NCBI GenBank assembly: GCA_017465905.1
Contig: JAFTVE010000002.1
Coordinates: 14,865 to 78,864 of the forward strand
DNA length: 64,000 nt
Direction: 5' to 3'
From: Bacteroidaceae bacterium
GTDB lineage: Bacteria > Bacteroidota > Bacteroidia > Bacteroidales > Bacteroidaceae
Translations under genes and position numbers: made by a program
The notes under the pieces: model-generated
Databases searched by the model: none
What the model was told of the DNA's origin: nothing
What the model saw: only the letters and a program-made list of their open reading frames with translations
Shown here: positions 4,885 to 63,725 of the stretch, in pieces
How the letters are laid out: every line of letters begins with the position of its first letter
How positions within the stretch are numbered: the stretch's first letter is position 1

Positions 4885-5047
4885 AGTTGAAAGTTGAAAG
4901 ATGAAAGTTGAAAGTAGGCTTCGCGATGTGTTCCCTGCTGGATGACAAAACTTTTATCTTTCACTTTTCAGCGTTTCATTTTTTTAAAGTTATTTTTCTG
5001 AGTTGTAAGTAGGAAAACTTTCATCTTTCATCTTTCCACTTTTTTTA
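4885..5047. repeat. GAAAG-word hairpin element, copy 1 (between parB and the four-helix-bundle gene)
   Basis: AGTTGAAAGTTGAAAGATGAAAGTTGAAAGT ... AAAACTTTCATCTTTCATCTTTCCACT. The terminal arms are imperfect reverse complements. Roughly 90 percent identical, by eye, to copy 2. Confidence 0.9.
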
Positions 5048-5411: not shown

Positions 5412-5582
5412 AGTTGAAAGTTGAAAGATGAAAGTTGAAAGTAGGCTTTGCGATGTGTTTCCTGCCGGATGGCAATAATCTTTCTTCTTTCACTTTTCAG
5501 CGTTTCATTTTTTTAAAGTTATTTTTCTGAGTTGGAAGTAGGAAAACTTTCATCTTTCATCTTTCCACTTTCCACTTTTTTT
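5412..5582. repeat. GAAAG-word hairpin element, copy 2 (between the four-helix-bundle gene and parA; overlaps the parA 3' end)
   Basis: Direct repeat of 4885-5047, offset by 527 bp. Contains the parA stop codon and its last 8 codons. Confidence 0.9.
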
Positions 5583-11317: not shown

Positions 11318-11408
11318 TAATTCTGAATTCTGAATTCTGATTTTTGAATTCTAAACATGGCTGTTTATAATGGATAATGTAGAATTCACGATTCAGAATT
11401 AGAAATCA
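11318..11408. repeat. imperfect palindrome built from GAATTC/TGAATTC words
   Basis: TTAATTCTGAATTCTGAATTCTGATTTTTGAATTCTAAACA ... TGTAGAATTCACGATTCAGAATTAGAAATCA. Fills the spacer between two co-directional genes. Confidence 0.8.
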
Positions 11409-14394: not shown

Positions 14395-15360
14395 TGTGTT
14401 TGAAATGTTTTAGTTTTGCCTATAAGTTCTCCCGATTCGGCGATATGTATTATTTAAAACAAAAAAGCGTGAGAACCTGTACCTGTTGCTCGTCTCACGT
14501 TCTGAGGCCTTCGCATTGCCCGATTAGTCGAAACGAGCAACGCAGACCTCACGCCGATATGAATATATAACCACACTATACCCACCACGGTTGCGGTAAG
14601 GTATAATAAAGGAATATAAAAAACATATCCCGTGACATCTACTGTTGCTTTGTCTTTGACTAATCGTTAGAAGTTGCGAAGTTCCAGAACGTCAAAACCA
14701 AAGCGTCAAGTAAACGCCTTTCCACTATGTCGTCCCCGCCCAGCCACCCTAATCTCCAATAAAGAATCAAGGCATCGGCGCGAAGATGGAGCAAAGGTAA
14801 TAATAAATTGATAATTGACAAATGACAATTAACAATTATTTTCTTGCATCTTAAAAGAAACGCAATGAAGATATTTACACCCAACCCAGAGGGCAAGCAA
14901 CATCCACCGCAACAATCTCCAAGGTTTTCGAGGAATAGGCGTAGGTGTACCTTGAAGGCCTTGGGGATTTGCTCTCCGAATAACCTTAAGGAATCACAAG
15001 AATCATTTTGACATACGTCATAGCATGCTATCATCGCAGACTGCCTGATGGCAACCATGAAACGAAGTTCTCCATTATGAACCGTATCCAATGTTTGCCC
15101 CCGGCAAAACAGCTTGTACCCCTTGGCAGAAAGGTTTGTCAAAGGAGGTTTCTGCCAAGAGTATACAAACTGAATATGTGTATGTTATATATATTAAGGA
15201 ATCGCGCTTGCGCCTCTTGAGACCTGCATTATAGTAATTTTTCGTTTGGGGCCTGGCAGAGTTGAATTGACAATTGAAAATAGACAATTGAGAATTCCTA
15301 GTAGGCACTCACGTCAGCTTTGTCCATCAACCATCAACCACCATCCATCATCCATCAACT

Positions 15361-45775: not shown

Positions 45776-45901
45776 TTATTTACAATTTTACAATTTACTA
45801 TTTACGATTTATTGTGCGATTTAGTTATTTACAATTTCAGCATCGCGAAATTCAAATTGACGAATAATTAAATTGTCAAATCAATTGTAAATTGTAATTG
45901 G
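45776..45901. repeat. about 125-bp imperfect palindrome built from TTACAAT/ATTGTAA words
   Basis: Left half has TTTACAATTTTACAATTTACTATTTACGATTT...; right half has ...AAATTGTCAAATCAATTGTAAATTGTAATTGG. Centre AATTTCagcatcgcGAAATT. Confidence 0.75.
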
Positions 45902-48652
45902 TTAAATAGTAAATTTCGCAATTGTCTCCTTAATCGCAGCAATCTTGCTCTCGGCATCGGCCTGCTTCTTGCGCTCGGCGGCTACTACGGCTTCGGGGGC
46001 ATTGCTTACAAAACGTTCGTTGGAAAGTTTCTTCATCACTGAGTTAAGGAAACCTTCGAGGTAGGTGAGCTCGGCCTGCAGCTTGGCAACTTCGGCCTCT
46101 ACATCGATGAGGCTGCCCAGAGGTACGGCATACTCGGTGGTGCCTACCATGAATGATGAGGTACCCTCGCTCTTGGCTTCTACTACATTGATAGCTTCGA
46201 GGTTGGCCATCTTCTCAATAATTGCATTGTAGGTAGCTACAGCGTGATTGCCTACCACTTCAAGGCTGAGCGCCTCCTTCTGCGCGATGTTCTTCTGCAA
46301 ACGGATGGTGCGCACGCCACTGATAATGCTCTTTACGGTCTCGATGTCGGCTATGAGCTGCTCGTCGTACTTGTCGGCAAAAATCTTTACGCTTTGTGTC
46401 ATGATGCTCTCGCCGGGCTTGCGTTCCTCGATAGCTTGCCACAACTCTTCGGTGATGAAGGGCATGAAGGGGTGGAGCAGGCGAAGCAGGGCGTCGAAGT
46501 AGTGAAGTGTGGCATCGTAGGTCTGCTTGTCGATAGCACAACCGTAGGCGGGCTTCACAATCTCAAGATACCAGCTGGAGAACTCATCCCAGAACAGGCG
46601 GTATATAGCCATCAGTGCCTCGCTCAAGCGGTACTTGCTCATCAGGTCGTCCACCTCGAGGGCTGTCTTGGTGAGCATAGCATCGAACCACTGGCAACCC
46701 AAGCGGGCAGCCTCGGGCTGAGCGATGGTGGCATCTACATTCCAACCCTTTACGAGGCGGAAGGCGTTCCAAATCTTGTTGTTGAAGTTACGGCCCTGCT
46801 CGCAGAGTGCATCATCGAAGAGGATGTCGTTGCCGGCAGGAGCGCAGAGCATCATACCCATACGCACGCCATCGGCACCATACTGGGCGATGAGGTCGAG
46901 CGGGTCGGGCGAGTTGCCGAGGCTCTTCGACATCTTGCGTCCCAGCTTGTCGCGTACGATACCGGTGAAGTATACATTCTTGAATGGCATGTCGCCCTTG
47001 TACTCGTAGCCTGCCATAATCATACGGGCTACCCAGAAGAAGATGATGTCCGGGCCAGTCACCAGGTCTGAGGTGGGGTAGTAGTAGTTGAGTTCGGCAT
47101 TGTCGGGGTTGTTGATACCGTCAAACAGTGAGATGGGCCACAGCCATGATGAGAACCATGTGTCGAGGGCATCCTCGTCCTGACGCAGCTCAGCAGCTGT
47201 AATATTCTCGTATCCCTCAATCTTGCGGGCCAACTCAACGGCTTCGTTAATGCTCTCGGCTACTACGAAGGCCTCCTCGGCACCCTCTGCGGTGGGCAGG
47301 AAGTAGGCCGGTATGCGGTGTCCCCACCAGAGCTGACGACTGATGCACCAGTCCTGAATGTTCTCCAACCAGTTGTTGTAGGTGGTCTTGTACTTGGCGG
47401 GGTAGAATTTGAGTTCGTCGTTCATTACGGGCGGCAGGGCGATGTCGGCAAAGTGCTGCATACGGAGGAACCACTGCATGCAGAGACGCGGCTCAACGGC
47501 TGTGTCGGCATTGCGCTCCGAGTAGCCCACCTTGTTGTCGTAGTCTTCCACCTTCTCGAGCAGACCAGCAGCTTCGAGGTCCTTGGCGATGAGGCGGCGC
47601 ACCTCCATGCGGTCCTTGCCTACATAGAGTCCGGCTTCCTCGCTCAGTGTGCCGTCGGGGTTGAAGATGTCGATAGTCTCCAGATTGTGCTTCTTGCCCA
47701 GCATGTAGTCATTGGTGTCGTGAGCAGGAGTCACCTTCAAGCAACCTGTACCGAACTCGATGTCTACGTAGCGGTCCTCGATGACAGGAATCTCGCGACC
47801 TACGAGCGGTACGATGACCTTCTGTCCCTTGAGCCAAGTGTTCTTGGGGTCCTTGGGGTTGATACACATGGCCGTGTCGCCCATGATGGTCTCGGGGCGA
47901 GTGGTAGCCACTACGGCGTAGTAACCTTTCTCGTCTTTGTGGATGACGTTGTCGAGTTGAAAGTTGAAAGATGAAAGTGGAGAGTGGCCGTCCGGATGGC
48001 AACTTTCATCTGTCATCTTTCCACTTTCCACTTGTCCTACCACATAATACTTCAGATAATACAGCTTGCTCTTCTCCTCCTTGTATATTACCTCTTCGTT
48101 GGAGAGGGCAGTCTGTGCCTTGGGGTCCCAGTTTACCATGCGCAGGCCGCGGTAGATAAGCCCCTTGTTGTAGAGGTCTACGAACACCTTGATGACGCTT
48201 GCGCTGCGCTTCTCGTCCATGGTGAAGGCCGTACGGTCCCAGTCGCATGAGGCACCCAGCTTACGCAATTGCTTGAGGATGATGCCGCCGTGCTCGTCGG
48301 TCCACTCCCAAGCATGCTTGAGGAACTCCTCACGGGTGAGGTCGCTCTTCTTGATGCCCTGTTCGGCGAGCTTCTTCACCACCTTGGCTTCGGTAGCGAT
48401 AGAGGCATGGTCGGTACCCGGTACCCAGCAAGCATTCTTGCCCAGCATACGTGCGCGGCGCACGAGAATGTCCTGGATGGTATTGTTTAGCATGTGTCCC
48501 ATGTGAAGCACACCCGTCACGTTGGGTGGGGGAATGACCACTGTATAGGGCTCGCGGCCGTCGGGCTCAGAGTGGAAGAGTTTGTTGTCTAACCAATATT
48601 GATACCATTTACCCTCAACATCCGTGGGGTTGTATTTGCTTGCTAATTCCAT
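45902..48652 (-). CDS. valS: valine--tRNA ligase (contains an in-frame repeat-derived insert)
   Basis: [13 protein letters not shown] (HIGH), KMSKSLGN (KMSKS), [10 protein letters not shown], and a C-terminal coiled coil. 916 aa. Confidence 0.95.
47954..48031. repeat. GAAAG-word hairpin element, short 78-bp copy inside the valS coding sequence
   Basis: First 24 nt AGTTGAAAGTTGAAAGATGAAAGT are identical to 4885-4908 and 5412-5435. The loop keeps CCGGATGGCAA. The right arm AACTTTCATCTGTCATCTTTCCACTTTCCAC is similar to about 5545-5575. Confidence 0.85.
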
Positions 48653-49790: not shown

Positions 49791-49855
49791 ATCAAGATTC
49801 CTTGCTTGCTTGGCAGAGTAATAATAAGTTTTACTCTACTCTCGCTACGCTGCGG
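49791..49855 (-). repeat. 65-nt bipartite conserved motif, copy B (gmd-fcl spacer)
   Basis: Minus strand reads CCGCAGCGTAGCGAGAG-N23-TGCCAAGCAAGCAAGGAATCTTGAT. Preceded on that strand by an (AATTGTG/AATTGTC)n-type array at 49856-49920. Confidence 0.8.
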
Positions 49856-49920
49856 AATTGTGAATTGTGAATTGTCAATTGTGAATTGTGAATTGTGAAT
49901 TGTCAATTGTCAATTGTCAA
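49856..49920. repeat. tandem heptamer array (AATTGTG/AATTGTC), about 9 units
   Basis: GAATTGTGAATTGTGAATTGTCAATTGTGAATTGTGAATTGTGAATTGTCAATTGTCAATTGTCAATT, immediately after the gmd stop codon. Confidence 0.9.
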
Positions 49921-51048
49921 TTACTTCACTATTCCCTTCTCCAGATACTCCACCAGGTTGGTGCGTATGCTCTCTCCGGCACGTTCTACGGCTACCTTGG
50001 CCATATCGGCATCCACCATAATCTTTACCAGTTCCTCGAAGGTCGTTTTCTGAGGGTTCCAGCCGAGCTTCTCTTTCGCTTTGGATGGGTCGCCCCAAAG
50101 ATTGACGACGTCGGTGGGGCGGAAGAAATCGGCAGATACCTCAATCAGTACATCTCCCACTGTCAGTCGCTTATTCACAGCCGATAGCTGGGGAGTGATG
50201 CTCTTGATGACACCCTTCTCGTCGGCCCCTTCACCTACGAACTCCAGCTCGATGCCTACGTGCTTGAACGCATAGTAGCAGAAGTCGCGCACCGAGTGCT
50301 GTATGCCGGTGGCGATGACGAAGTCCTCAGGCTTGTCGTTCTGCAGCATCAGCCACATACATTCCACGTAGTCCTTGGCATATCCCCAGTCGCGCAGCGA
50401 TGACAGGTTGCCCAGATATAGCTTGCTTTGTTTACCCTGGGCAATGCGTGCCGCAGCAAGGGTTATCTTGCGTGTGACGAAGGTCTCGCCACGGCGCTCG
50501 CTCTCGTGATTGAAGAGGATGCCCGAGCAGCAAAACATGTTGTATGCCTCGCGGTACTCCTTCACTATCCAGTGGCCGTACAGCTTGGCTACAGCATACG
50601 GACTATAGGGGTGGAAGGGTGTTTCCTCGTTCTGAGGCACTTCCTCTACCTTGCCGTACAGTTCCGATGTAGAAGCCTGGTAGATGTGGCATGTATCGGC
50701 CAAGCCGCTGAGACGTACAGCTTCGAGGATGCGCAATACTCCGGTGGCATCTACATTGGCCGTAAACTCGGGTGAGTCAAAGCTCACCTGCACGTGGCTC
50801 TGTGCAGCGAGGTTGTATATCTCGTCGGGACGCACCTTGCTAATAACCCGAATCAGGCTCATGGAGTCGCCCAGGTCGGCATAGTGGAGGTGAAATTTCG
50901 GCTGCCCCTCAAGGTGTGCTATACGTTCGCGATAGTCTACCGATGAGCGGCGTATAGTACCATGTACCTCGTATCCTTTGCTTAAAAGAAACTCAGAAAG
51001 GAACGAACCGTCCTGACCGGTGATACCGGTTATCAAAGCTGTTTTCAT
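49921..51048 (-). CDS. gmd: GDP-mannose 4,6-dehydratase
   Basis: [26 protein letters not shown] and NHESERRG motifs. -7 box at 51072-51079. Confidence 0.95.
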
Positions 51049-51071
51049 ATACTTGTCCTTTAATTATTTCG

Positions 51072-51079
51072 CAAAATTA
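51072..51079 (-). promoter_or_regulatory. -7 box TAatTTTG for gmd
   Basis: Plus strand CAAAATTA, 24 nt upstream of the ATG at 51048. TTGC lies about 20 nt further upstream, in the -33 position. Confidence 0.55.
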
Positions 51080-51370
51080 GTGCAAGCCGAGAGAAAATGC
51101 AAGCTTGCTTAATATTATTTTCTTCCTTGTCACTCGGCAGAGATTGTGTAAGCCCATCTCTGCTCTCGTTCCTGCGTCAGTTGCAATTTTCCGAGGCGCA
51201 GCCTAATTTCTGGCCTGCATAGCAGGACTAAAGATAGTGCAAGCCGAGAGAAAATGCAAGCTTGCTTAATTTTATTTTCTTCCTTGTCACTCGGCATAGA
51301 GATTAGGCAAGCCCATCTCTGCTCTCGTTCCTGCATTAGTTGCAATTTTCCGAGGCGCCGCCTAATTTCT
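51079..51370. repeat. two direct repeats of about 134 bp (period 157 bp), each carrying a promoter-like module
   Basis: 51079-51211 and 51236-51370 align with few mismatches (AGTGCAAGCCGAGAGAAAATGCAAGCTTGCTTAAT...CCGAGGCGC.GCCTAATTTCT). Confidence 0.85.
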
Positions 51371-51431
51371 CCATCCCTTTGGCCCGATCAAGTACACGTC
51401 CTCGATGAAATGGACGATTTTTAGATGCTCC

Positions 51432-51845
51432 CTATATGGCGAAAGTTCATAAATCGGTTGGCTTTGGCAACGCGGAGAGAACAGAGCCAAATTCATTTGA
51501 ACTCTGCTCACGAGCAAGCAAGCACAACAAATTCAGTACTTCCCCGTCAGTACTCCAGTACTGAGCCGTAAGTACTCGAGTACTTGGTCATAAGTACTAT
51601 AGTACTTGCATGAAAGTACTGATAGTTACGCCTTTTTTCTGTCTTAAGATTGTCGTTTCAGTGTGAGTCGTGCTAAAGAAGTTTACAATATAGGGCTTAA
51701 TATACTGAAAAGGTTGACAATTATTCTTTCATTCCTATTGGCTATAGTATTAAAACAAACTCTTAATATCCGTCAAGAAGTTAACGTTATCGTTGCAGCG
51801 TTCCGCACTGCCAAAGCCAACCGATTTATGAACTTTTGCCAATAG
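51432..51845. mobile_element. 414-bp segment bounded by 37-38 bp inverted repeats (MITE-like, or invertible/ori-like segment; nature unknown)
   Basis: Left CTATATGGCGAAAGTTCATAAATCGGTTGGCTTTGGCA (51432-51469). The reverse complement of 51809-51845 is CTATTGGCAAAAGTTCATAAATCGGTTGGCTTTGGCA, with a 28-nt perfect core. Confidence 0.4.
51535..51620. repeat. eight AGTACT hexamers in a strict 14/8/14/8/14/8/14-bp start-to-start pattern (22-bp period)
   Basis: AGTACT starts at 51535, 51549, 51557, 51571, 51579, 51593, 51601 and 51615. The spacers (N8 and N2) are not conserved. Confidence 0.9.
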
Positions 51846-51930
51846 GGAATGGAGCGGAGGGGGACTCTCTTCCATCATCCATCAACCGCAGCTCCGCTCT
51901 CCTGTTTTCGTTATCGTTAGAAGATTGCTG

Positions 51931-52968
51931 TCAATCGACAGCAGTCTTTTTTCCATCCTTGATATAGATACCGCGCGCGGGATTATCCACGGGGCGACCC
52001 TGCAGGTCGTAGTAGGGTGCTTCGGTTGATTTCTCTTCTATCATTAAGCCGATGGAGGAAATACCTTGGGGTACTACTGCTGTTATAAGTCCCCAATGAA
52101 CCGTATATCTCTCTTGGGTGAGACCGGGAATCCTCACGTCTATGGCATTTACACTTCTACAATCTGCCTCATCGTTATAGGGATATCTCGCGAAGCCAAT
52201 CCGTATGTCTTCATGCTTTTCCTCGATTAATAAATAAGCTCCTCCTTCACAATAGCCTTCAATATATCCTCCGACATAGAGCGTATCGTTACGCAAATCA
52301 AATGTCATGCGGTTACCGGCATGGGCGGCTTTATATTCCTCATAACTGCCAAAATCCTCCTCGTTCACCTTTTCTCCATATCGGACAGACATGCCACGCA
52401 AGTTGTTTTCCTGAAAATCGAATTCGTAAGCGATAATATCCCTATACTCTTCCACGTATAGGCTGCTATATATTAAATGCGTGTTTCCTGCTTTGGGCGG
52501 ATTGATACCATATCGTAATGAACCAACGTCTTCAATCCATACATCGGTAAAGTCCTGCTGTTCTATTCCGCGCAGATGGAGTGTCTTGCAAACAGTTTCT
52601 TCTCCCCACCAGCATTTCATCAGCGTGTCAGTCTTTTGCTCTACTATCACATTAAGCCCGTCATACAACGCGAAGGTATCACCCACTTCCAGACCGAAAT
52701 CCATAACCATATACTCCTTCTCTTCAGTTGGACTATAGCAGTAGATTCTGTTGCCGTCTTGTCGGTAAAAATAACGCAAATCAATATCTTTGGCATATTC
52801 GATGCCATCTATAGTGTGCGTGCCAAATAGGTAATACGAAGAGCAACCGTTGTTCTCGTATAGTATGAAGCCTCTGTATGTATCGATGAATTGGCGAATC
52901 TCTTGCGCTTGCAAGGCATTGCCACAAACCATGATGATACAAATCAATGTTGTCGATAGTCGTTTCAT
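51931..52968 (-). CDS. hypothetical secreted protein with short T9SS-type C-terminal sorting motif
   Basis: Signal peptide MKRLSTTLICIIMVCGNALQAQ. C-terminus YYDLQGRPVDNPARGIYIKDGKKTAVD resembles the short T9SS CTD form. AT-rich gene. Confidence 0.55.
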   Translation of the reverse strand: MKRLSTTLICIIMVCGNALQAQEIRQFIDTYRGFILYENNGCSSYYLFGTHTIDGIEYAKDIDLRYFYRQDGNRIYCYSPTEEKEYMVMDFGLEVGDTFALYDGLNVIVEQKTDTLMKCWWGEETVCKTLHLRGIEQQDFTDVWIEDVGSLRYGINPPKAGNTHLIYSSLYVEEYRDIIAYEFDFQENNLRGMSVRYGEKVNEEDFGSYEEYKAAHAGNRMTFDLRNDTLYVGGYIEGYCEGGAYLLIEEKHEDIRIGFARYPYNDEADCRSVNAIDVRIPGLTQERYTVHWGLITAVVPQGISSIGLMIEEKSTEAPYYDLQGRPVDNPARGIYIKDGKKTAVD

Positions 52969-53027
52969 AATATTACTAATTCTTATAATTATACGGCAAA
53001 GATAGTATCTTTTATTAGAACTTACAA

Positions 53028-55376
53028 CTACGGTTTGTCTATTCTGAGGACGGCCCCCTTAGAAACCTTGGTGCCAGCTTGCAATTCCACTCTATTGCCC
53101 ACCATATTCACAGTGCCACTATTGAAGGTAACATCACCCGTTGTACTCTTGTCCGTTACATTCCTTCCAGTTTTGATAATGTTTCCCGAATAGTTCTTAT
53201 CCTCACTGGTGGTCTCATTTTGAATATACACTGGATTATTAGATATATTTGTGATATAAGGGATGCAATCGTGTCGCGATATACAAATAATCACATCGTT
53301 GGACTCTGTTTGGTAGACAACATTGCTTCTATCATATGTGGCCACTTGCTGAGTTGAGGGTGTGTAGAACGATATGTGTGCTTCGCCATCCTTAACCTTA
53401 ACATATATAGAATTATTTATACGACACACTTCAGGTATTTGTATGTTTGTTGGACAACTTGTGTAGATTTGCATGCTAGGGTCACCGAATAGATGGAATA
53501 ATTCACGGGTATATTCAGCTCCAGATGTTCGCGTTGAACCCCATGTTTCTTTCATTCGCACCATGCCTACTTCTAGAATTTGTCCCAATTCATAAGTTGG
53601 GGATGGCGTAGGAGTAACTCCTATACCATTTGAAGATGAGGGAAAAATAGAACGCAAACCTGGTTCAGGCCATATTGCATCGAACATACCAGTTGCCAAG
53701 GCATCATTATATCCAGAATAACTAATCCCTGTCGCTGCATATATAGCAACACAGCCACCGTTAACATGCTTCAAAAAAGCTTCAGCAAAACAATCGATAG
53801 TTGACGATACATGATATCTTCCTGTATTACAGTTTACACTAAACACTACAGGAAGTTTGTCTGAATTTATTAAATTAGGGATGTGATTAATCTCAAAGGC
53901 TGGCTCTTCCCAACCATAAAAGGTGCCATGGTCTCTATGTAGCACATAAAAGGCTCCTTCATTTATATAATTGGCAATATCGGTACTACTGCCATTCCAT
54001 GGAAACTCGGGCTTACGTAAATAACTAGGAATAGGTTCGCCTGAACTATATATTCCATTATTCCAAAAAAGAGGAGTAGTCTCGCTTTTTGTGAAGTAAA
54101 CTCTGTTTACCGTTTTCCCTTGACTTCTCACATATTGAAGGACCTCTTCTACTGTTTGAGCAAATCGTCTATCAGCGTAGGTGTCAGGAAGGATGACAAA
54201 ATCATCGATTTTTATTGTATCATCCTGAAAATACGCACAATTAAGTCCTGTATTATAAAAAGAAGTATCCAATGTGGGGTTTCCTTCATAGGAACGTATT
54301 TTGTCGAATACAACTTCTGCCTCAGAAGTGTTATCGGTTGGTATTCGCCCATAATAAATATCCGGCACATAATCATTAGCCCCATCTATGCAAGCGTAAT
54401 GCAAATCTGTAACGCATTCACTATCCGAATAAGAAGAACTAATTGCAGGAACAATATTCTCATCTCCAACGATAAGTAAATAATAAAGATTGTTGTTAGG
54501 GGCATTATAGTAGTTAGATACAGTATCTTTAACCGCCTGTATACTCCAATTATCATTTACCGCGATAAAGGTTCGGAAGCCCAATGTACGTTTCCACTCG
54601 GCAAATTCTTCAACAGCAGGGCTTAATGCGGAATTAGTAATAATCAGATAGTCTCGGGTCGATTGTTCTGCATCCGTTGTTTCTGATATGCATCGAACTT
54701 GATTTGTTGTTGATGGTGGGTTTATTGTCGCCAATGACAAATAATTGTCATTGATGTCAACAGCAGATGTGGCTCCATTACTTCGAGATGATGCAATGAA
54801 GGTAATTTTATATTTAATCATCTTGTATGCCCTAACAATCTGTAGCTTGTAATCATACTGCAATGGAGATATGCCCACATCTAGCAAAGGTACTCCTCTG
54901 TAAGCATTACCTTCAAAACTCTCGATTAAAGACGCTGGAAAAAAACCGTCATACGATACTATCGGAAGAACTGTCTCCAATGTATGTCCTACTGTATCAC
55001 TATCTATCAATGCAGGACGAGCTGGTGCCAATTGCATTGGAAAATCAACATAGGATGAATCAAGTACCTCAATACTTATGCGCGTATTCTGTGGCAACGA
55101 AAACGAATCCCAACGGAAAGGAGTTGATGGTTCACCAACCGTTTCATTCAGACCGAAGCCTGGAATTCTCCATAAAACACAGTCATTATACAATAAATCT
55201 TGCTGTGTAACCGCGTTATCAAAATAATAGGTAACGATAATGCCGTCTTCCACTTGCTCAACATCTCTCTTCGGCATTGTAACCTCCGAATAGGTTATGC
55301 CATTTAGGGAAATGACCGTCTGTGCATTAGTCAATGCTGCTGTAATGAATAACAGCGTGCATAGAATTGTTCTCAT
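53028..55376 (-). CDS. peptidase C25 (gingipain-like cysteine peptidase) family protein
   Basis: YLLIVGDENIVPA, DIYYGRIP, VLHRDHGTFYGW (candidate catalytic His) and VVFSVNCNTGRY (candidate catalytic Cys). Has a signal peptide. No clear type A CTD at the C-terminus. Confidence 0.75.
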   Translation of the reverse strand: MRTILCTLLFITAALTNAQTVISLNGITYSEVTMPKRDVEQVEDGIIVTYYFDNAVTQQDLLYNDCVLWRIPGFGLNETVGEPSTPFRWDSFSLPQNTRISIEVLDSSYVDFPMQLAPARPALIDSDTVGHTLETVLPIVSYDGFFPASLIESFEGNAYRGVPLLDVGISPLQYDYKLQIVRAYKMIKYKITFIASSRSNGATSAVDINDNYLSLATINPPSTTNQVRCISETTDAEQSTRDYLIITNSALSPAVEEFAEWKRTLGFRTFIAVNDNWSIQAVKDTVSNYYNAPNNNLYYLLIVGDENIVPAISSSYSDSECVTDLHYACIDGANDYVPDIYYGRIPTDNTSEAEVVFDKIRSYEGNPTLDTSFYNTGLNCAYFQDDTIKIDDFVILPDTYADRRFAQTVEEVLQYVRSQGKTVNRVYFTKSETTPLFWNNGIYSSGEPIPSYLRKPEFPWNGSSTDIANYINEGAFYVLHRDHGTFYGWEEPAFEINHIPNLINSDKLPVVFSVNCNTGRYHVSSTIDCFAEAFLKHVNGGCVAIYAATGISYSGYNDALATGMFDAIWPEPGLRSIFPSSSNGIGVTPTPSPTYELGQILEVGMVRMKETWGSTRTSGAEYTRELFHLFGDPSMQIYTSCPTNIQIPEVCRINNSIYVKVKDGEAHISFYTPSTQQVATYDRSNVVYQTESNDVIICISRHDCIPYITNISNNPVYIQNETTSEDKNYSGNIIKTGRNVTDKSTTGDVTFNSGTVNMVGNRVELQAGTKVSKGAVLRIDKP

Positions 55377-55387
55377 GGCACACCCTC

Positions 55388-56698
55388 CTACTTTGTTAAT
55401 ATCATACGTTTGGTATCAATCACCTGCCCGTCGGCAATGAGAGCATAGAGATACATGCCGGCCTCCAGACTGCGACCTTCGATAGTGATATTTGTAGCAC
55501 CACGCTCGGTAATAGCATAGACTGTGATTTGCTTGCCGTTCATGTCATAAACATAAAGGTCTGCCTTTATCACCTCCTCAGCTACATCGCACTGAATGAG
55601 TGTGCTTTCTGTAAACGGATTGGGGGTGTTCTGATAAAGAGTGGTGACGATGGCATCCATATCTGTAGCCTCCTCATCGGTCGAACGAGTCTGAGCTTTT
55701 TGAATAGGAGCATTGCTCCCCTTAGTAGCATCCAACTCTGATTTCAACTCTTGCACAGAACGGATAAGCAACGGGATAATCTCCAAATAATTGATGGCTA
55801 GATACCCATCTTGGCTTTCTATTACAAGGTCTGGATAGATTTTTTGCAGTTCTTGTGCAATAAGGCCATAATGCTTGTTCTTTATAATGGGAGAGCCTTC
55901 TTCAAACCAGCGTGCTTTCACTTCTGTGGATTTTTCATGCAGATTCATAGTGGCGATGGTAGAGTCTTGTTCTAACAATTCAGCCTCCATTTGCTCCTCT
56001 TCGTCAAGTTCGGACTTGCTGACCTCGTACTCACGTTGCTTGTTGTTGAACTCCACGACATTCATACTCATTAACTTGCCCAAACAGCCATCCGTTGAAG
56101 AAAGGGAACGCACATTCTCTTTTAAGCGATAGTCTGAGCTAGTCACTACTGCACCAGCTGTTAGAGTTCCTGTAACGCGAGTATCACCATAAAAGTAGCC
56201 AGCATAGCGACCTTCTATTGTGGGGAGAATTGTATTGGTACTATTACCCAAAATTGCTGATCCATAATAATTGTTCTCACTGGATGATATGCCATTTAGA
56301 ATTCCCACTATTCCATAGTTACGTTTGTTTAACGAAACTCCTGATTTTCCATAGACACCAACCGTGGCATAACAATCACTACCTGATGTTATCGAAGAAT
56401 GAAAGCCATATACGGAACGAGTATTGAAGAGTGCGCTGATATTCGCTCGTATTCCATGGTAAAGATTGTTTTCCATAGCTTTTCCGTATATATATAGACT
56501 ATACACGGCGTCCTTGGGAGTATCTATTGATACTGTAGCATTAGCATGACCAGTGCCATTGATTGATAGTTCTGATATAAGAGTGTCATTCGTTTCTATA
56601 CCTACTCCCGTTCTTCCATTTTCATCTACTATTAACTGCGCATTGGCCACGCCAAAACATGATGCTATTATAAGCATCGAAAAAAGAATTTTTTTCAT
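55388..56698 (-). CDS. tail-fibre-like protein with peptidase S74 (intramolecular chaperone) domain and T9SS C-terminal sorting domain
   Basis: SSDYRLKENV...HYGLIAQELQKIYPDLV...INYLEIIPLLIRSVQEL matches the S74 chaperone domain. C-terminus NPFTESTLI...AGMYLYALIADGQVIDTKRMILTK is a type A CTD. Confidence 0.75.
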   Translation of the reverse strand: MKKILFSMLIIASCFGVANAQLIVDENGRTGVGIETNDTLISELSINGTGHANATVSIDTPKDAVYSLYIYGKAMENNLYHGIRANISALFNTRSVYGFHSSITSGSDCYATVGVYGKSGVSLNKRNYGIVGILNGISSSENNYYGSAILGNSTNTILPTIEGRYAGYFYGDTRVTGTLTAGAVVTSSDYRLKENVRSLSSTDGCLGKLMSMNVVEFNNKQREYEVSKSELDEEEQMEAELLEQDSTIATMNLHEKSTEVKARWFEEGSPIIKNKHYGLIAQELQKIYPDLVIESQDGYLAINYLEIIPLLIRSVQELKSELDATKGSNAPIQKAQTRSTDEEATDMDAIVTTLYQNTPNPFTESTLIQCDVAEEVIKADLYVYDMNGKQITVYAITERGATNITIEGRSLEAGMYLYALIADGQVIDTKRMILTK

Positions 56699-56750
56699 AA
56701 TTCTGTGTGTTTTTTAATTATTTAATTGGTTACTGAGTCGTTTTACTTTA

Positions 56751-56786
56751 ATCCCCCATTTCCCCGAATTCGGGGAAATGGGGGAT
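56751..56786. repeat. perfect 36-bp palindrome centred on GAATTC
   Basis: ATCCCCCATTTCCCCGAATTCGGGGAAATGGGGGAT, located 8 nt downstream of the DUF3244 stop and 53 nt upstream of the S74-protein start. Confidence 0.9.
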
Positions 56787-56793
56787 ATAGGGG

Positions 56794-57138
56794 CTAGTCT
56801 ATGACATTGAATTCTCCCACATAAGTGTTATCGCCTTGCTTTATCTCTAATTGGTATTCACCATCAGGAAGCGAGGGTAAATTAATCACGACTAGACCGC
56901 TTGTGAACGAGCCGTTATACACTACAACTTGTGTGCCTTGACTAATGACCGTAATTTGCGATGCGGTAGCTTCACTAAACTCGATGGTTAATACTTGGCC
57001 GTCAATGGAAGCGGTAGGTAACTGGACTTCACTACGCTCATGTGGTCGTTTTTTCTTTTCTATCTTAATAGGTTTAGCTTCTGCAAACCCCGATAGCATG
57101 CAACAAAGCAACGCCAATAACATAAATACCTTTTTCAT
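56794..57138 (-). CDS. DUF3244-like small secreted protein
   Basis: 114 aa with a signal peptide. LTIEFSE...ITVISQGTQVVY...LPDGEYQLEI...YVGEFNV fits the DUF3244 pattern. -7 box at 57164-57171. Confidence 0.6.
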   Translation of the reverse strand: MKKVFMLLALLCCMLSGFAEAKPIKIEKKKRPHERSEVQLPTASIDGQVLTIEFSEATASQITVISQGTQVVVYNGSFTSGLVVINLPSLPDGEYQLEIKQGDNTYVGEFNVID

Positions 57139-57163
57139 ACTGATTAGTTTTATCGTTTTCGCT

Positions 57164-57171
57164 ACAAATAT
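57164..57171 (-). promoter_or_regulatory. -7 box TAtaTTTG for the DUF3244 gene
   Basis: Plus strand CAAATATA, 26 nt upstream of the ATG at 57138. Confidence 0.5.
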
Positions 57172-57202
57172 ATAGCGGAAACAATATTTCAGGCGAAAAA
57201 AG

Positions 57203-57223
57203 ATAGTGACAAAATAGTGACAA
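57203..57223. promoter_or_regulatory. tandem direct repeat ATAGTGACAA x2 (11-bp period) upstream of the DUF3244 promoter
   Basis: ATAGTGACAAaATAGTGACAA lies 32-59 nt upstream of the -7 box at 57164-57171. It is bracketed by GGCGAAA (57192-57198) and TTTCGCC (57233-57239). Confidence 0.4.
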
Positions 57224-57293
57224 TTTCACGGATTTCGCCCCTGATAGAAATAGGGTGTGTGGTAAAGATTTGTAATACAGGGTGTTATAAAGC

Positions 57294-58925
57294 TTAAGCA
57301 AAAATGCTGAAAATATCCGCAGGGAGCTTGCTTGAAAGGCGCTTCTTGCGCTGGTTCACCACATTGTCGGAAGAGGCGGCCAAGCATTCGCGAATAACAC
57401 CGGTGGAATAGCCCAATGCGAGATAGAGGAAAAGATGGATATCTTCGGTGCTGAGTTTGCTACCGCTTCTCATTGCTTCATCGCGTAAGTTGGTGATGAC
57501 GGTGACGAAGCAGCGCTCGAGTGCTTCGGCCAGTTGCTCGCGCTCTAGAATTGTAAGGGGGGGTATATCCTTGCTGCGCTGCTCGCTCAGTTTCCGTAAT
57601 CGTGAGGCCCACTCCTCCTTGCTCCAGAGTGTGACACTTGCTGTGAGGTTTGCCCGATAGAGAGCAAGCATCGGGGCACGCTCCAGCGTTCCATTATCGC
57701 GCTTCGCTTCGATGGATTCGTACATTTTGTAGATTCGCGCCTGATTGCGCTGTAGCTCTTGCTGCAAACGAAGATAATGCTGCTTGCGACGTTGCTCAAT
57801 AGAGAGGGATACTATTACAATAACCGCAACTATGCATACAAGCGTCAACAGCATATTATAAAGTGATCTTCGGTGACGTTCCGATAATTCACGCTGCTGT
57901 AACTCCATTTGGTGTGCTGTATGTATCTCGTCAATTTCGGTGCGGCGCTCTATGCGGTTGATGGAGTCGGACATCTGTTCGAAGCGCTTGACGTAACTAT
58001 AGAGTTCGGGCTGTACTATGGAGTCTAAGGTCAGGTATAGTAGGTTGCGGGCACAATTGTATTGGAGGTATACCTCATCATCTCCCTGCATAGCCATCTC
58101 ATAGTAATACTTGGCGGTATCGTTGTTCCCATAAGACTCAGCCATGTTCCCTTTAAACCAATAGGTCCCATCGACCTCTTCACCTCCATACAATGCTATC
58201 AGTTGGTCAAAGTACATATTGGCCTTATCGTAGTCTTTGGAGAAAGCATACTCAATCTTGCCCAAGTCAAAAAGCACAGTCTCCAAACTGAGCGTATCCA
58301 TCTCGGTACGATGCAGTAACAGTCCCTCCAATATCTCGCGAGCTTGCTTAGGTTGTTTCTTATGGATATAAGCCTGGGCCAATCCTATATCGGCATACAA
58401 ATGCGCATCACCCTCTGTTATATTATGGTATGCTGTATATGCTGCCAGTGCTTCATCGGACATATCTTTATTCAGATAGTGTCGTCCAAGATTCTGATAA
58501 CATAGCCCATAATATCGTGCCGTAGTATCAGGGAAGAGGCTTTGTGCCTGTAGATAGGCCTCCACGGCCGGTGCATCGCGCCTCAGCTCGGTATACACGC
58601 ACCCCAAGGAGTACCAGGCCATAGCTGCGCGATAGCTTTTCCTATTCCTATTATAATAGTCGGTGGCATGGCGGATGAGGGTGTCGGTAGTGAGCGGTAC
58701 GTAGCACTTATAGTCGGCCTGCGTGCGCAGTATGGCATAGAGTGCCCGCTCCTCATCGCCGAGCGAGGCGAGGGGGATGCTGTCGAGCGCGAGGCGCACG
58801 GCCTCGGGCGCGGTATCAAGCTGCGCCTCCAAGCGCTCCAGCTGGCGCATGTGGCCATGCCCGCCACCCCCCCCCATGCAGAGGGTGGCGAGAAGGAGGG
58901 TGTATAGTATGGCGCGGAGCTTCAT
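57294..58925 (-). CDS. TPR-repeat, single-TM putative transcriptional regulator with C-terminal HTH-like region
   Basis: N-terminal signal, TPR-like repeats, TM LYNMLLTLVCIVAVIVIVSLSI, coiled coil, and C-terminal LSTEDIHLFLYLALGYSTGVIRECL. It resembles Bacteroidales DUF6377-type regulators, but this is from memory. Confidence 0.6.
   Translation of the reverse strand: MKLRAILYTLLLATLCMGGGGGHGHMRQLERLEAQLDTAPEAVRLALDSIPLASLGDEERALYAILRTQADYKCYVPLTTDTLIRHATDYYNRNRKSYRAAMAWYSLGCVYTELRRDAPAVEAYLQAQSLFPDTTARYYGLCYQNLGRHYLNKDMSDEALAAYTAYHNITEGDAHLYADIGLAQAYIHKKQPKQAREILEGLLLHRTEMDTLSLETVLFDLGKIEYAFSKDYDKANMYFDQLIALYGGEEVDGTYWFKGNMAESYGNNDTAKYYYEMAMQGDDEVYLQYNCARNLLYLTLDSIVQPELYSYVKRFEQMSDSINRIERRTEIDEIHTAHQMELQQRELSERHRRSLYNMLLTLVCIVAVIVIVSLSIEQRRKQHYLRLQQELQRNQARIYKMYESIEAKRDNGTLERAPMLALYRANLTASVTLWSKEEWASRLRKLSEQRSKDIPPLTILEREQLAEALERCFVTVITNLRDEAMRSGSKLSTEDIHLFLYLALGYSTGVIRECLAASSDNVVNQRKKRLSSKLPADIFSIFA
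58867..58875 (-). repeat. G9 homopolymer tract (coding strand) in codons 17-20 of the TPR regulator gene
   Basis: Plus strand has CCCCCCCCC at 58867-58875. The coding strand reads ATG GGG GGG GGT GGC GGG, encoding MGGGGG. Confidence 0.9.
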
Positions 58926-63203: not shown

Positions 63204-63725
63204 CTAAGAATCTTTGATTTTCTCTATTATCTTCTCGTCAATCTTCATGATGGCACTGCCAAGGAGGTCGACCTTGAGGGCAAAATAGTGCTTGCCCTTG
63301 CTGTGGGCGATGACACCTTCGAGGCCCGTCAGTGGCCCTTCGGTGATACGTACACGGTCGCCCTCCTTCAGGCGCTCTTCGGTGAAGTCGACTTGTTGGT
63401 TGGCGTTGGTGACGAAGAAGATGAGGGCCTGCATCTGGCTTTCGGGGATGTGGGCAGGGGTGGACTTGCCTGGGATGCAGACGGTGTATGTCACTGAACT
63501 CAGCTTAAGTACCTCGATGCGCTCCTTCTCCGTAGCATGCACGAAGATGAGTTGGGGAGTGAGTACACGATCCTTGATGACACGGCGGTCGTGCCATACG
63601 CGTACTTCACTGCGTACCGGCACGAAACACTCGATGCCCATCTTGGCAAGATTGTCCCTGGTCTTCAATTCGTGGAACAACCGTACGTGTATGGCAAACC
63701 AATATTTGGGTAGCTCTGTATTCAT
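63204..63725 (-). CDS. UpxY-family NusG-like transcription antiterminator
   Basis: WFAIHVRLFHELKTRDNLAKMGIECFVP (NGN domain) and GDRVRITEGPLTGLEGVI (KOW). Confidence 0.8.
   Translation of the reverse strand: MNTELPKYWFAIHVRLFHELKTRDNLAKMGIECFVPVRSEVRVWHDRRVIKDRVLTPQLIFVHATEKERIEVLKLSSVTYTVCIPGKSTPAHIPESQMQALIFFVTNANQQVDFTEERLKEGDRVRITEGPLTGLEGVIAHSKGKHYFALKVDLLGSAIMKIDEKIIEKIKDS

Follow-up and report, generated by a model that had tools for sequence, protein, structure and literature searches.

What is the function of a rigid lattice of AGTACT hexamers lying upstream of gmd, and is any protein family tied to it? The lattice is found in a 64,000-nt stretch of the genome of a Bacteroidaceae bacterium (GenBank assembly GCA_017465905.1, contig JAFTVE010000002.1, positions 14,865 to 78,864 of the forward strand), referred to below as the window, and consists of eight hexamers set at a period of 22 bp. 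We read it, with a probability of roughly 0.6, as an orphan copy of a cis-element of the DUF6078 protein family, made up of four phased 22-bp dyad units and bound by a DUF6078 protein. An initial annotation of the window had described the lattice and had considered an operator, an iteron origin and a cluster of restriction sites as its possible functions. Loci used for comparison are given by L numbers.

The AGTACT lattice and its repeat family

Lattices were scored in a register-aware manner by summing the matches to AGTACT over eight slots in the 14/8 register (maximum 48). The hexamers start at 51535, 51549, 51557, 51571, 51579, 51593, 51601 and 51615, in agreement with the initial annotation, and reach 48/48 in register, against 26 for the next independent position in the window and no more than 30 in 50 block shuffles; the register scan found exactly one lattice in the window, and Tandem Repeats Finder (TRF) gave it a period of 22 bp. 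AGTACT occurs at only six further sites in the 64 kb, matching the handful noted earlier, and the total of 14 is unremarkable against an expectation of 9.9 +/- 3.3; it is the clustering and register of the sites, not their number, that is unusual. The four N8 spacers have no sequence in common, also as previously claimed, and the whole array forms a weak palindrome (arms of 45 nt, 71% complementary). When 150 flanks from 75 full lattices were profiled, the position before the first hexamer was C in 89% and the second position before it was C or T in 96%. On this flank profile the array reads best as four 22-bp palindromes without gaps between them, C-AGTACT-N8-AGTACT-G, over 51534-51621. The consensus of the N8 spacers across the repeat family is itself symmetric (T-C-C-n-n-G-G-A).

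Genomes, one per species, were scanned with the exact pattern of two consecutive units (24 specified bases), for which about 0.002 chance matches would be expected in 596 Gb by our calculation. There were at least 116 matching loci, every one of them in a genome titled as belonging to Bacteroidales (Phocaeicola, Bacteroides, Parabacteroides, Prevotella, Paraprevotella, Alloprevotella, Mediterranea and metagenome-assembled genomes, MAGs), with spacers that differ between copies. The check for further lattices in other genomes, proposed with the initial annotation, thus showed that the lattice is no one-off. The modal copy is 86-88 bp long and has eight hexamers. Among the matches listed, several genomes hold 5-10 lattices and the richest at least 10, and lattices on the same contig lie 35-290 kb apart. 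Copies are nearly always intergenic and mainly at gene 3' ends; the 85 classifiable copies listed lie between convergent (44), tandem (32) or divergent (9) genes, against a background convergent share of 12-21% of intergenic regions for the same loci and open reading frame (ORF) caller (binomial p about 1e-19). No functional theme was found among the genes next to orphan lattices; the 139 proteins flanking lattices are, apart from members of DUF6078, encoded by assorted housekeeping genes. The juxtaposition with gmd, to which the initial annotation had drawn attention, is confined to close relatives, and the repeat has no special tie to that gene. In the literature library searched, no description of a 22-bp AGTACT repeat in Bacteroidales or of DUF6078 was found, and the protein family, the rigid four-unit 22-bp palindrome array and its distribution appear undescribed.

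Two further sets of lattices were noted. The Paraprevotella MAG CALULQ01 carries at least 10 two-unit lattices (L004, L027, L035, L039, L043, L048, L054, L062, L073 and L102) of the form AGTACT-tgccgcag-AGTACT-cg-AGTACT-tgccgcaa-AGTACT, with near-palindromic spacers and several copies inside long predicted ORFs; these may be a distinct derivative family. Standard 86-bp AGTACT lattices were also present on 44 stretches from IMG/VR contigs classified as viral (L197-L240), sometimes two per contig, and no DUF6078 gene was found on these 44 stretches.

Arrays downstream of DUF6078 genes

The recurrent ORF of ~144 aa beside lattices was assigned to DUF6078 (PF19555), its sole Pfam match, and has no NCBIfam name. 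Starting from the lattices, a DUF6078 stop codon was located 3-20 nt from the array in 8 of the 116 listed loci and a DUF6078 gene nearby in about 12, and among 139 lattice-flanking proteins no family recurred except DUF6078, with 9. Against ascertainment bias, loci were also sampled from the protein side, going from 30 aligned homologues to 80 metagenomic loci, and remote family members were sampled down to 21% identity, including a Treponema protein. In the 74 loci with at least 100 nt of downstream sequence, at least two AGTACT hexamers were present within 160 nt downstream of the DUF6078 stop codon in 72 and at least four in 59; none of the 74 had AGTACT within 160 nt upstream of the gene. 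In the main clade the array begins 2-5 nt past the stop codon in most loci.

A motif-independent periodicity test was performed on 28 non-redundant DUF6078 genes with 300 nt of flanking sequence, taking the best self-identity at lag 22 in an 88-nt window. Identity reached at least 0.50 downstream of 26 genes (median 0.67) and upstream of none (median 0.34), and lag 22 was the best of lags 15-30 for 25 of the 28. The two misses are L089, with its lattice about 530 nt downstream and outside the scan, and L185, with an array about 240 nt downstream. Over 484 kb of DUF6078 loci, every lag-22 array was found just 3' of a DUF6078 gene. The window lattice has the four 22-bp units and the dyad half-site of these DUF6078-linked arrays and, like most lattices found by motif, has no DUF6078 gene within about 0.5 kb; it very probably belongs to the same array family.

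The half-sites differ between protein clades at a constant period. In a DUF6078 clade with HWSRNPYFERRRG replacing HFGRNPYFERRRG, the odd slots hold AGTAAT and the even slots AGTACT or AGTACC, with the register unchanged. Arrays of remote members gave lag-22 identities of 34-60, against a null 99th percentile of 31/66, and had the following units.

L257: unit AGTCCT-N8-AGGACT-N2, period 22 bp
L255: unit AGTACA-N7-TGTAYT-N3, period 22 bp
L262: unit AGTTTCTCCCTGTAAGGACTGG, period 22 bp
L260: unit TACTGCGGTTTCCCCTAAGGGT, period 22 bp
L253: unit TTCCCAA/TTGGGAA, period 22 bp
L263 (B. finegoldii): unit TGTGCCA..TGGCACA, period 22 bp
L264 (second P. distasonis paralogue): unit GTTTCYC-TTAG-GRGAAAC, period 22 bp
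L265 (Treponema): three TGTTTCA-type units, period 22 bp

The two arms of the remote arrays are mostly reverse complements, the dyad being kept and the sequence changed. Such co-variation of half-site and protein is strong circumstantial evidence for a cognate protein-site pair.

Some of these loci have features of their own. L265 is Treponema saccharophilum pTS1 (NZ_AP025289.1, 1922-2437), where a DUF6078 homologue of 21% identity is encoded outside Bacteroidota and the units start at its stop codon. Parabacteroides distasonis (L033, L264 and PLSDB records NZ_OY725834.1 and NZ_OY725757.1) has at least two DUF6078 paralogues, with arrays of the AGTACT type (L033) and of the GTTTCYC-TTAG-GRGAAAC type (L264), the latter type going with protein WP_011966740.1, in different strains, which suggests orthogonal protein-site pairs within one species. 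In the clade of L166, L170, L173 and L191 the DUF6078 start overlaps or closely trails the stop codon of an 830-1000-aa protein with a GNPPYQ motif, which by eye is like that of N6-adenine methyltransferases, and at L173 the array is followed by a gene for a 252-aa protein with an HNH-like motif, also read by eye.

The DUF6078 family comprises 1,033 clusters at 50% identity (E <= 1e-3). The proteins are always stand-alone and about 144 aa long, and a profile search of 1.84 billion proteins returned no domain fusions. Cysteines C16, C21, C27, C51 and C57 are invariant or nearly so, the conserved core reads RNPYFERRRG, and residues 61-110 are basic with a net charge of +7 (family median pI 8.2), a charge profile compatible with nucleic-acid binding. 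No signature of a nuclease or transposase was detected in the protein, whether of the HUH/Y1, the DDE or another type. A confident AlphaFold model was obtained with a predicted local distance difference test score (pLDDT) of 88 and a predicted template modelling score (pTM) of 0.71. The gene neighbours of DUF6078 vary between loci.

The inverted-repeat element in the window

The window lattice is flanked by a 40-nt inverted repeat (IR), 93% complementary and overlooked in the initial annotation, with a left arm (IR-L) at 51437-51476 and a right arm (IR-R) at 51802-51841. The parts of the element are listed below.

51399-51423, plus strand: degenerate hairpin and T-run remnant (CGATGAAAT..CGATTTTT), sitting before IR-L, with a counterpart in DUF6078b-linked copies
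51429-51849, no strand: complete IR-bracketed element (IR-L, lattice, filler and IR-R), classed as an orphan copy of the DUF6078 b-clade cis-element
51437-51476, plus strand: IR-L, with the invariant core AAAGTTCATAAATCGGTTGGC and weaker similarity to about 51429-51479
51534-51621, no strand: lattice of four 22-bp palindromic units, identified by its score of 48/48, the flank profile and 75% non-hexamer identity to L037 and L089
51625-51800, no strand: A/T-rich filler between lattice and IR-R, GC 0.35, classed as outside the conserved element
51802-51841, minus strand: IR-R, with its outer edge at about 51849, where synteny with related strains is lost

The IR core is invariant in all seven aligned loci (the window, WIN, together with L112, L010, L025, L037, L089 and L107) and is also present in L266, where the right arm is mismatched, and L269. 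Outside the hexamers, identity of the window lattice is 75% with L037 and L089, which are DUF6078b-linked, and 81% with the orphan L010, against 25-42% for main-clade lattices; its 3' flank (...AGTACTgatagttacg) is likewise shared. The b subclade of DUF6078 is itself ~40% identical to the main clade. Because the IR core is invariant and the non-hexamer identity is 75% against 25-42%, the element at about 51429-51849 was taken to descend from the b-clade cis-element, as an orphan copy of it.

At L037, L089, L266 and L269 the order is DUF6078b gene, terminator-like hairpin, IR-L, lattice and IR-R, with the hairpin lying between the stop codon and the element and facing the gene. Both L266 and L037 have a terminator-like site (CCGATGAAATCGG plus T6), and the orphan L025 has one related to it; the hairpin remnant of the window, as read from its sequence, no longer forms a stem. 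L037 is a near-perfect palindrome of about 476 bp. Lattices without the IR have no defined termini or target-site duplications beyond the flanking YC/GR. The A/T-rich stretch reported downstream of the window lattice is real (GC 0.35 at 51625-51810 against 0.51 for the window). It was found only in WIN and L112, the other aligned copies having 46-115 nt at that place, and this alignment places it outside the conserved element, as a feature of the window's lineage only. As to the earlier statement that no binding protein is encoded next to the lattice, it holds for the window; beside sister copies elsewhere a strong candidate, DUF6078, is encoded.

Contigs encoding an identical Gmd protein carry the element in one orientation throughout. 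When the intergenic region is read in reverse, homology to L242-L250 sets in at its position 82, corresponding to about 51849 in the window, and on this comparison a strain-variable island has its border at the element. From the outer edge of IR-R a block of low GC (41-45%, where the window as a whole has 51%) extends over about 51849-58900, with genes for a 345-aa protein without Pfam match, a C25 peptidase, a protein sorted by the type IX secretion system (T9SS), a DUF3244 protein and a tetratricopeptide repeat (TPR) protein; strains L242-L250 have a gene for an outer-membrane protein (OMP) beta-barrel in its place. Between the IR element and gmd lies a 159-bp tandem repeat (51078-51370, 1.9 copies, 93% identity), the gmd-proximal end of which holds the only Bacteroidetes-type -7 box. 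Contig L247 has one copy of this repeat fewer, and copy number therefore differs between strains.

Several other features of the window were recorded. A second array of 22-bp period (2836-2940; TRF period 22, 4.4 copies, 84% match) repeats the 12-bp palindrome TATCC-NN-GGATA five times, with spacers of 10 bp that are A/T-rich, and lies 193 nt downstream of a DUF5683 gene, itself placed after chromosomal parB and parA, with no DUF6078 nearby; it may be an origin-proximal cluster of DnaA boxes, TATCCAC resembling the DnaA box TTATCCACA. Short tandem heptamers include GAATTGT, repeated 9.7 times between fcl and gmd (49855-49922), AGTTGAA, repeated about 4.4 times at three places, and AATTGAC, repeated about 4.6 times at two. 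Further heptamer repeats are located at 4885-4915, 5412-5442, 5545-5578, 11319-11352, 14806-14837, 15265-15296, 15324-15359, 45778-45811 and 47955-47978, and several look intergenic. At the window edge (63204-63725, minus strand) a 173-aa NusG-domain protein is encoded, of the kind heading polysaccharide loci in Bacteroidales.

Weighing the explanations

Because of the obligate adjacency of gene and array, the co-variation of half-site and protein, and the conservation of sequence over pairing described below, the DUF6078 protein was considered a probable ligand of the lattice. In the proposed mechanism, a DUF6078 protein encoded elsewhere in the window's genome would bind the array, most likely as dimers on each 22-bp palindrome. 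With 22 bp close to two helical turns, the four units would lie on one face of the helix, which could allow cooperative binding; the protein would have its home site in the array adjacent to the gene and further sites in the dispersed copies. Our best guess at the function is a protein-dependent barrier at transcription-unit ends (a roadblock or insulator) or a chromosome-structuring site. A barrier would fit the bias to 3' ends and convergent genes, an element that is symmetric, and terminator-like hairpins that face outward in the b-clade element.

Several observations weigh against this assignment. No DUF6078 was found in the 64-kb window by tblastn, and for the window's lineage the gene was seen only in related MAGs (L037, L089, L108, L266 and L269). 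A Foldseek search of the DUF6078 model against the PDB gave no significant neighbour (best E = 0.59), and nothing significant was returned by the PDB sequence profile, PADLOC, PHROGs or NCBIfam, no DNA-binding fold being recognized. The clade-specific half-sites represent few independent events, and their co-variation is suggestive and not statistical proof. Enrichment between convergent ends would also be expected of a selfish element settling in harmless sites. Dyad symmetry and a 3' position would likewise be expected of RNA or single-stranded DNA (ssDNA) hairpins, for which the strand folds well (z = -4.5), and the main-clade array, lying 2-5 nt past a stop codon, is probably transcribed at least in part.

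A cognate gene beside a repeat with scattered orphan copies is a known pattern, found in REPtrons, centromere arrays, iterons and Ter sites, and the lattice was compared with each. As in the systems of repetitive extragenic palindromic (REP) sequences and their transposases (REP/REPIN-RAYT, or REPtrons), short palindromic extragenic repeats are dispersed with a bias to gene 3' ends, copies stand directly beside a single cognate gene, and repeat sequence and protein clade change together. Unlike in REPtrons, the protein is DUF6078 and not a HUH/Y1 transposase, the array stands 3' of the gene only, and there are no compensatory stem changes. A criterion for REPs is an imperfect hairpin whose foot carries a conserved tetranucleotide, GT[AG]G or CGTC (PMC3733652, PMC6006769); no such foot is seen in the flank profile of the lattice (units C-AGTACT...AGTACT-G), which is a rigid array of four 22-bp-phased palindromes, whereas REPs are single hairpins or inverted pairs. 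Against the more than 100 copies per genome asked of REPs, the lattice occupies at least 5-10 loci per genome among the matches listed; the extragenic bias is shared. Atypical REPs have been described beside the Bacteroidetes-specific RAYT subclass 2.6 (Quentin et al. 2018, PMC6006769), a protein family other than DUF6078. Membership of the lattice system in RAYT/REP was dropped, the neighbouring ORF matching PF19555 only and not Y1_Tnp.

In sopB-sopC of F and parB-parS of P1, the gene for a DNA-binding protein is followed by an array of sites, on which binding is thought to nucleate a higher-order complex. The DUF6078 loci have the same order, a gene followed directly by repeated dyad-symmetric sites, DUF6078 binding being a prediction. 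They differ in having no ParA-type partner near DUF6078, variable neighbours, a protein unrelated to SopB or ParB and many orphan arrays around the chromosome; the window's own canonical parA-parB lies 47 kb from the lattice. Iterons, such as the seven 22-bp iterons of R6K beside pir, share the period of ~22 bp, the several phased repeats and the adjacent gene. Iterons, however, are direct repeats upstream of or around rep, whereas the lattice units are palindromes downstream of a gene for a 144-aa protein without a Rep domain, and the lattice arrays are found on chromosomes, in multiple copies and mostly where genes converge, with no conserved A/T-rich unwinding element. In the Tus-Ter and RTP-Ter (Bacillus subtilis) systems about ten or more scattered sites act as barriers to a translocating machine. 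The likeness to DUF6078, a small protein with its gene beside one site and further sites scattered, is taken as a lead only, for Ter sites are polar and asymmetric where the lattice is symmetric, and DUF6078 has no sequence similarity or detected fold similarity to Tus or RTP. GC skew gave no sign of either an origin or a terminus.

Among the alternatives, a selfish, non-autonomous element survives best and was judged unlikely. The lattice, together with the 40-nt terminal IR in the window's subfamily, would be recognized by a mobilizing enzyme as in a REPIN or a miniature inverted-repeat transposable element (MITE), with DUF6078 in the role of RAYT. Copies scattered over many loci with a single cognate gene beside one of them would be explained, and the convergent-end distribution would be a safe-haven pattern. 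Mobility is also suggested by the common spacers and IRs at unrelated loci of one MAG (L010/L112 and L025/L037), by a break in synteny between strains just where IR-R has its outer edge and by the almost perfect palindrome of about 476 bp at L037. However, DUF6078, at ~144 aa and never fused, has no nuclease or transposase signature, the array is confined to the 3' side of the gene where REPtrons are two-sided, and most lattices lack an IR or termini defined beyond YC/GR. Nor was there a target-site duplication at the IR edges of the window; orthologous lattices are stably inherited between sister species (e.g. L020/L050), and the copy number, at least 5-10 per genome among the matches listed, is probably in the tens and not the hundreds. 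The barrier and the selfish element would not be mutually exclusive, the same distribution fitting both.

A role as RNA or ssDNA was considered quite improbable. Here the units would form AGUACU-N8-AGUACU hairpins, giving four tandem stem-loops for termination or protection of mRNA 3' ends, and DUF6078 would bind the hairpins if anything. The position of the lattice 2-5 nt past the DUF6078 stop codon, and at gene 3' ends in general, would suit such a role, as would the dyad symmetry of each unit, including remote clades in which both arms have changed together. Pairing was examined in 539 non-redundant AGTACT-type units. At the 189 arm-pair positions off consensus, a compensated Watson-Crick change was found once, and the deviating pairs were balanced between G.T (71) and A.C (67), with no wobble bias; complementarity inside individual spacers did not exceed the prediction from column composition. 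By this test sequence and phasing are conserved and pairing is not. In the AGTAAT/AGTACT clade, with AGTAAT set against AGTACT or AGTACC, the putative stem is broken in every unit yet the register is kept, and the period stays at 22 despite changes in half-site length and spacer split (8/2, 7/3 and others), which helical phasing would explain and a string of hairpins would not. The single strand of the lattice in transcript sense folds above shuffles (z = -4.5; z = -10 for the IR element), a result of little information because palindromes guarantee folding. Furthermore, most lattices are not followed by a U-tract, scanning the window's intergenic region for terminators gave none, the b-clade element has a terminator-like hairpin of its own ahead of it, and Rfam gave no match in 50500-52500 at E <= 1. 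Because the changes are uncompensated, the stem-breaking clade keeps the register and the period is fixed at 22, duplex DNA was favoured as the form in which the element would act, at about even odds. The statement of the initial annotation that conservation of hexamers and spacing only is the mark of a protein-binding array is backed by at least 116 copies with differing spacers, by the uncompensated changes and by a 22-bp period that is kept as the half-sites change with the neighbouring protein family.

The functions named in the initial annotation were considered very improbable as a set. A ribbon-helix-helix (RHH) operator of gmd-fcl, after the model of MetJ, would suit the location of the lattice upstream of gmd on the coding strand. 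The units are, however, of 22 bp and not 8 bp, the only -7 box (TAnnTTTG) among the 882 bp of intergenic DNA is at 51072-51079, 31 nt away from the ATG of gmd and separated from the lattice by more than 450 bp, the neighbours of other copies are functionally unrelated and orphan lattices are mostly at gene 3' ends; the lattice is probably not a regulator of gmd. A scan of the intergenic region for sigma-70 promoters and terminators gave nothing informative. An iteron origin, suggested by the 22-bp period and the A/T-rich stretch that follows (GC 0.35), does not agree with several arrays per chromosome, with the lack of a rep gene within +/-20 kb and of a GC-skew switch, or with the lineage-specific nature of that stretch. 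AGTACT is the ScaI site, and some DUF6078 genes stand beside genes for an NPPY methyltransferase and an HNH protein (motifs read by eye), as a restriction-modification (R-M) site cluster might have it; nevertheless, the geometry is retained in sister arrays whose half-sites are entirely different, and AGTAAT and AGTACT alternate in one clade, making a restriction-site cluster unlikely.

Least probable of all is an invertible switch, in which the 40-nt IRs would be invertase sites and a flip of the 325-bp segment would toggle gmd-fcl as at Bacteroides capsule promoters: a 93% complementary IR around 325 nt upstream of a sugar-nucleotide operon, with a core kept at several loci as in invertons sharing an invertase, has that look, but WIN, its species-level orthologue L112 and the eleven contigs L241-L251 from other samples are all in one orientation (assemblies showing the majority form only), no recombinase is encoded within +/-20 kb, neither strand of the segment has a TAnnTTTG promoter, and IR-lattice-IR also stands at the 3' ends of DUF6078b genes, a place in which switching a promoter would be senseless.

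Returning to the lattice as a DUF6078 cis-element, we tentatively propose, at somewhat less than even odds, that DUF6078 and its arrays form an unrecognized protein-DNA system that is lineage-wide in Bacteroidales, with outliers such as that in Treponema, and that it would be a new barrier or architectural element and not a transposon relic. In such a system, four or five phased dyads would be occupied cooperatively by a small, cysteine-rich protein with a new fold, protein specificity and site sequence would evolve together and allow orthogonal paralogue-array pairs in one genome, and a few dozen chromosomal sites would be marked at transcription-unit ends.

For a large family of undefined function, the obligate downstream array provides a lead to function in the form of a concrete partner for DUF6078. 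The hosts include major cultivable genera of the human gut (Phocaeicola, Bacteroides, Parabacteroides and Prevotella), and the P. distasonis paralogues with their different arrays offer a natural specificity-swap system. For annotation, the 88-bp arrays can be recognized as a repeat class and not as local operators. If the arrays are protein-dependent barriers, they would bear on how transcription units and chromosome domains are delimited in Bacteroidota, whose transcription signals differ from those of E. coli.

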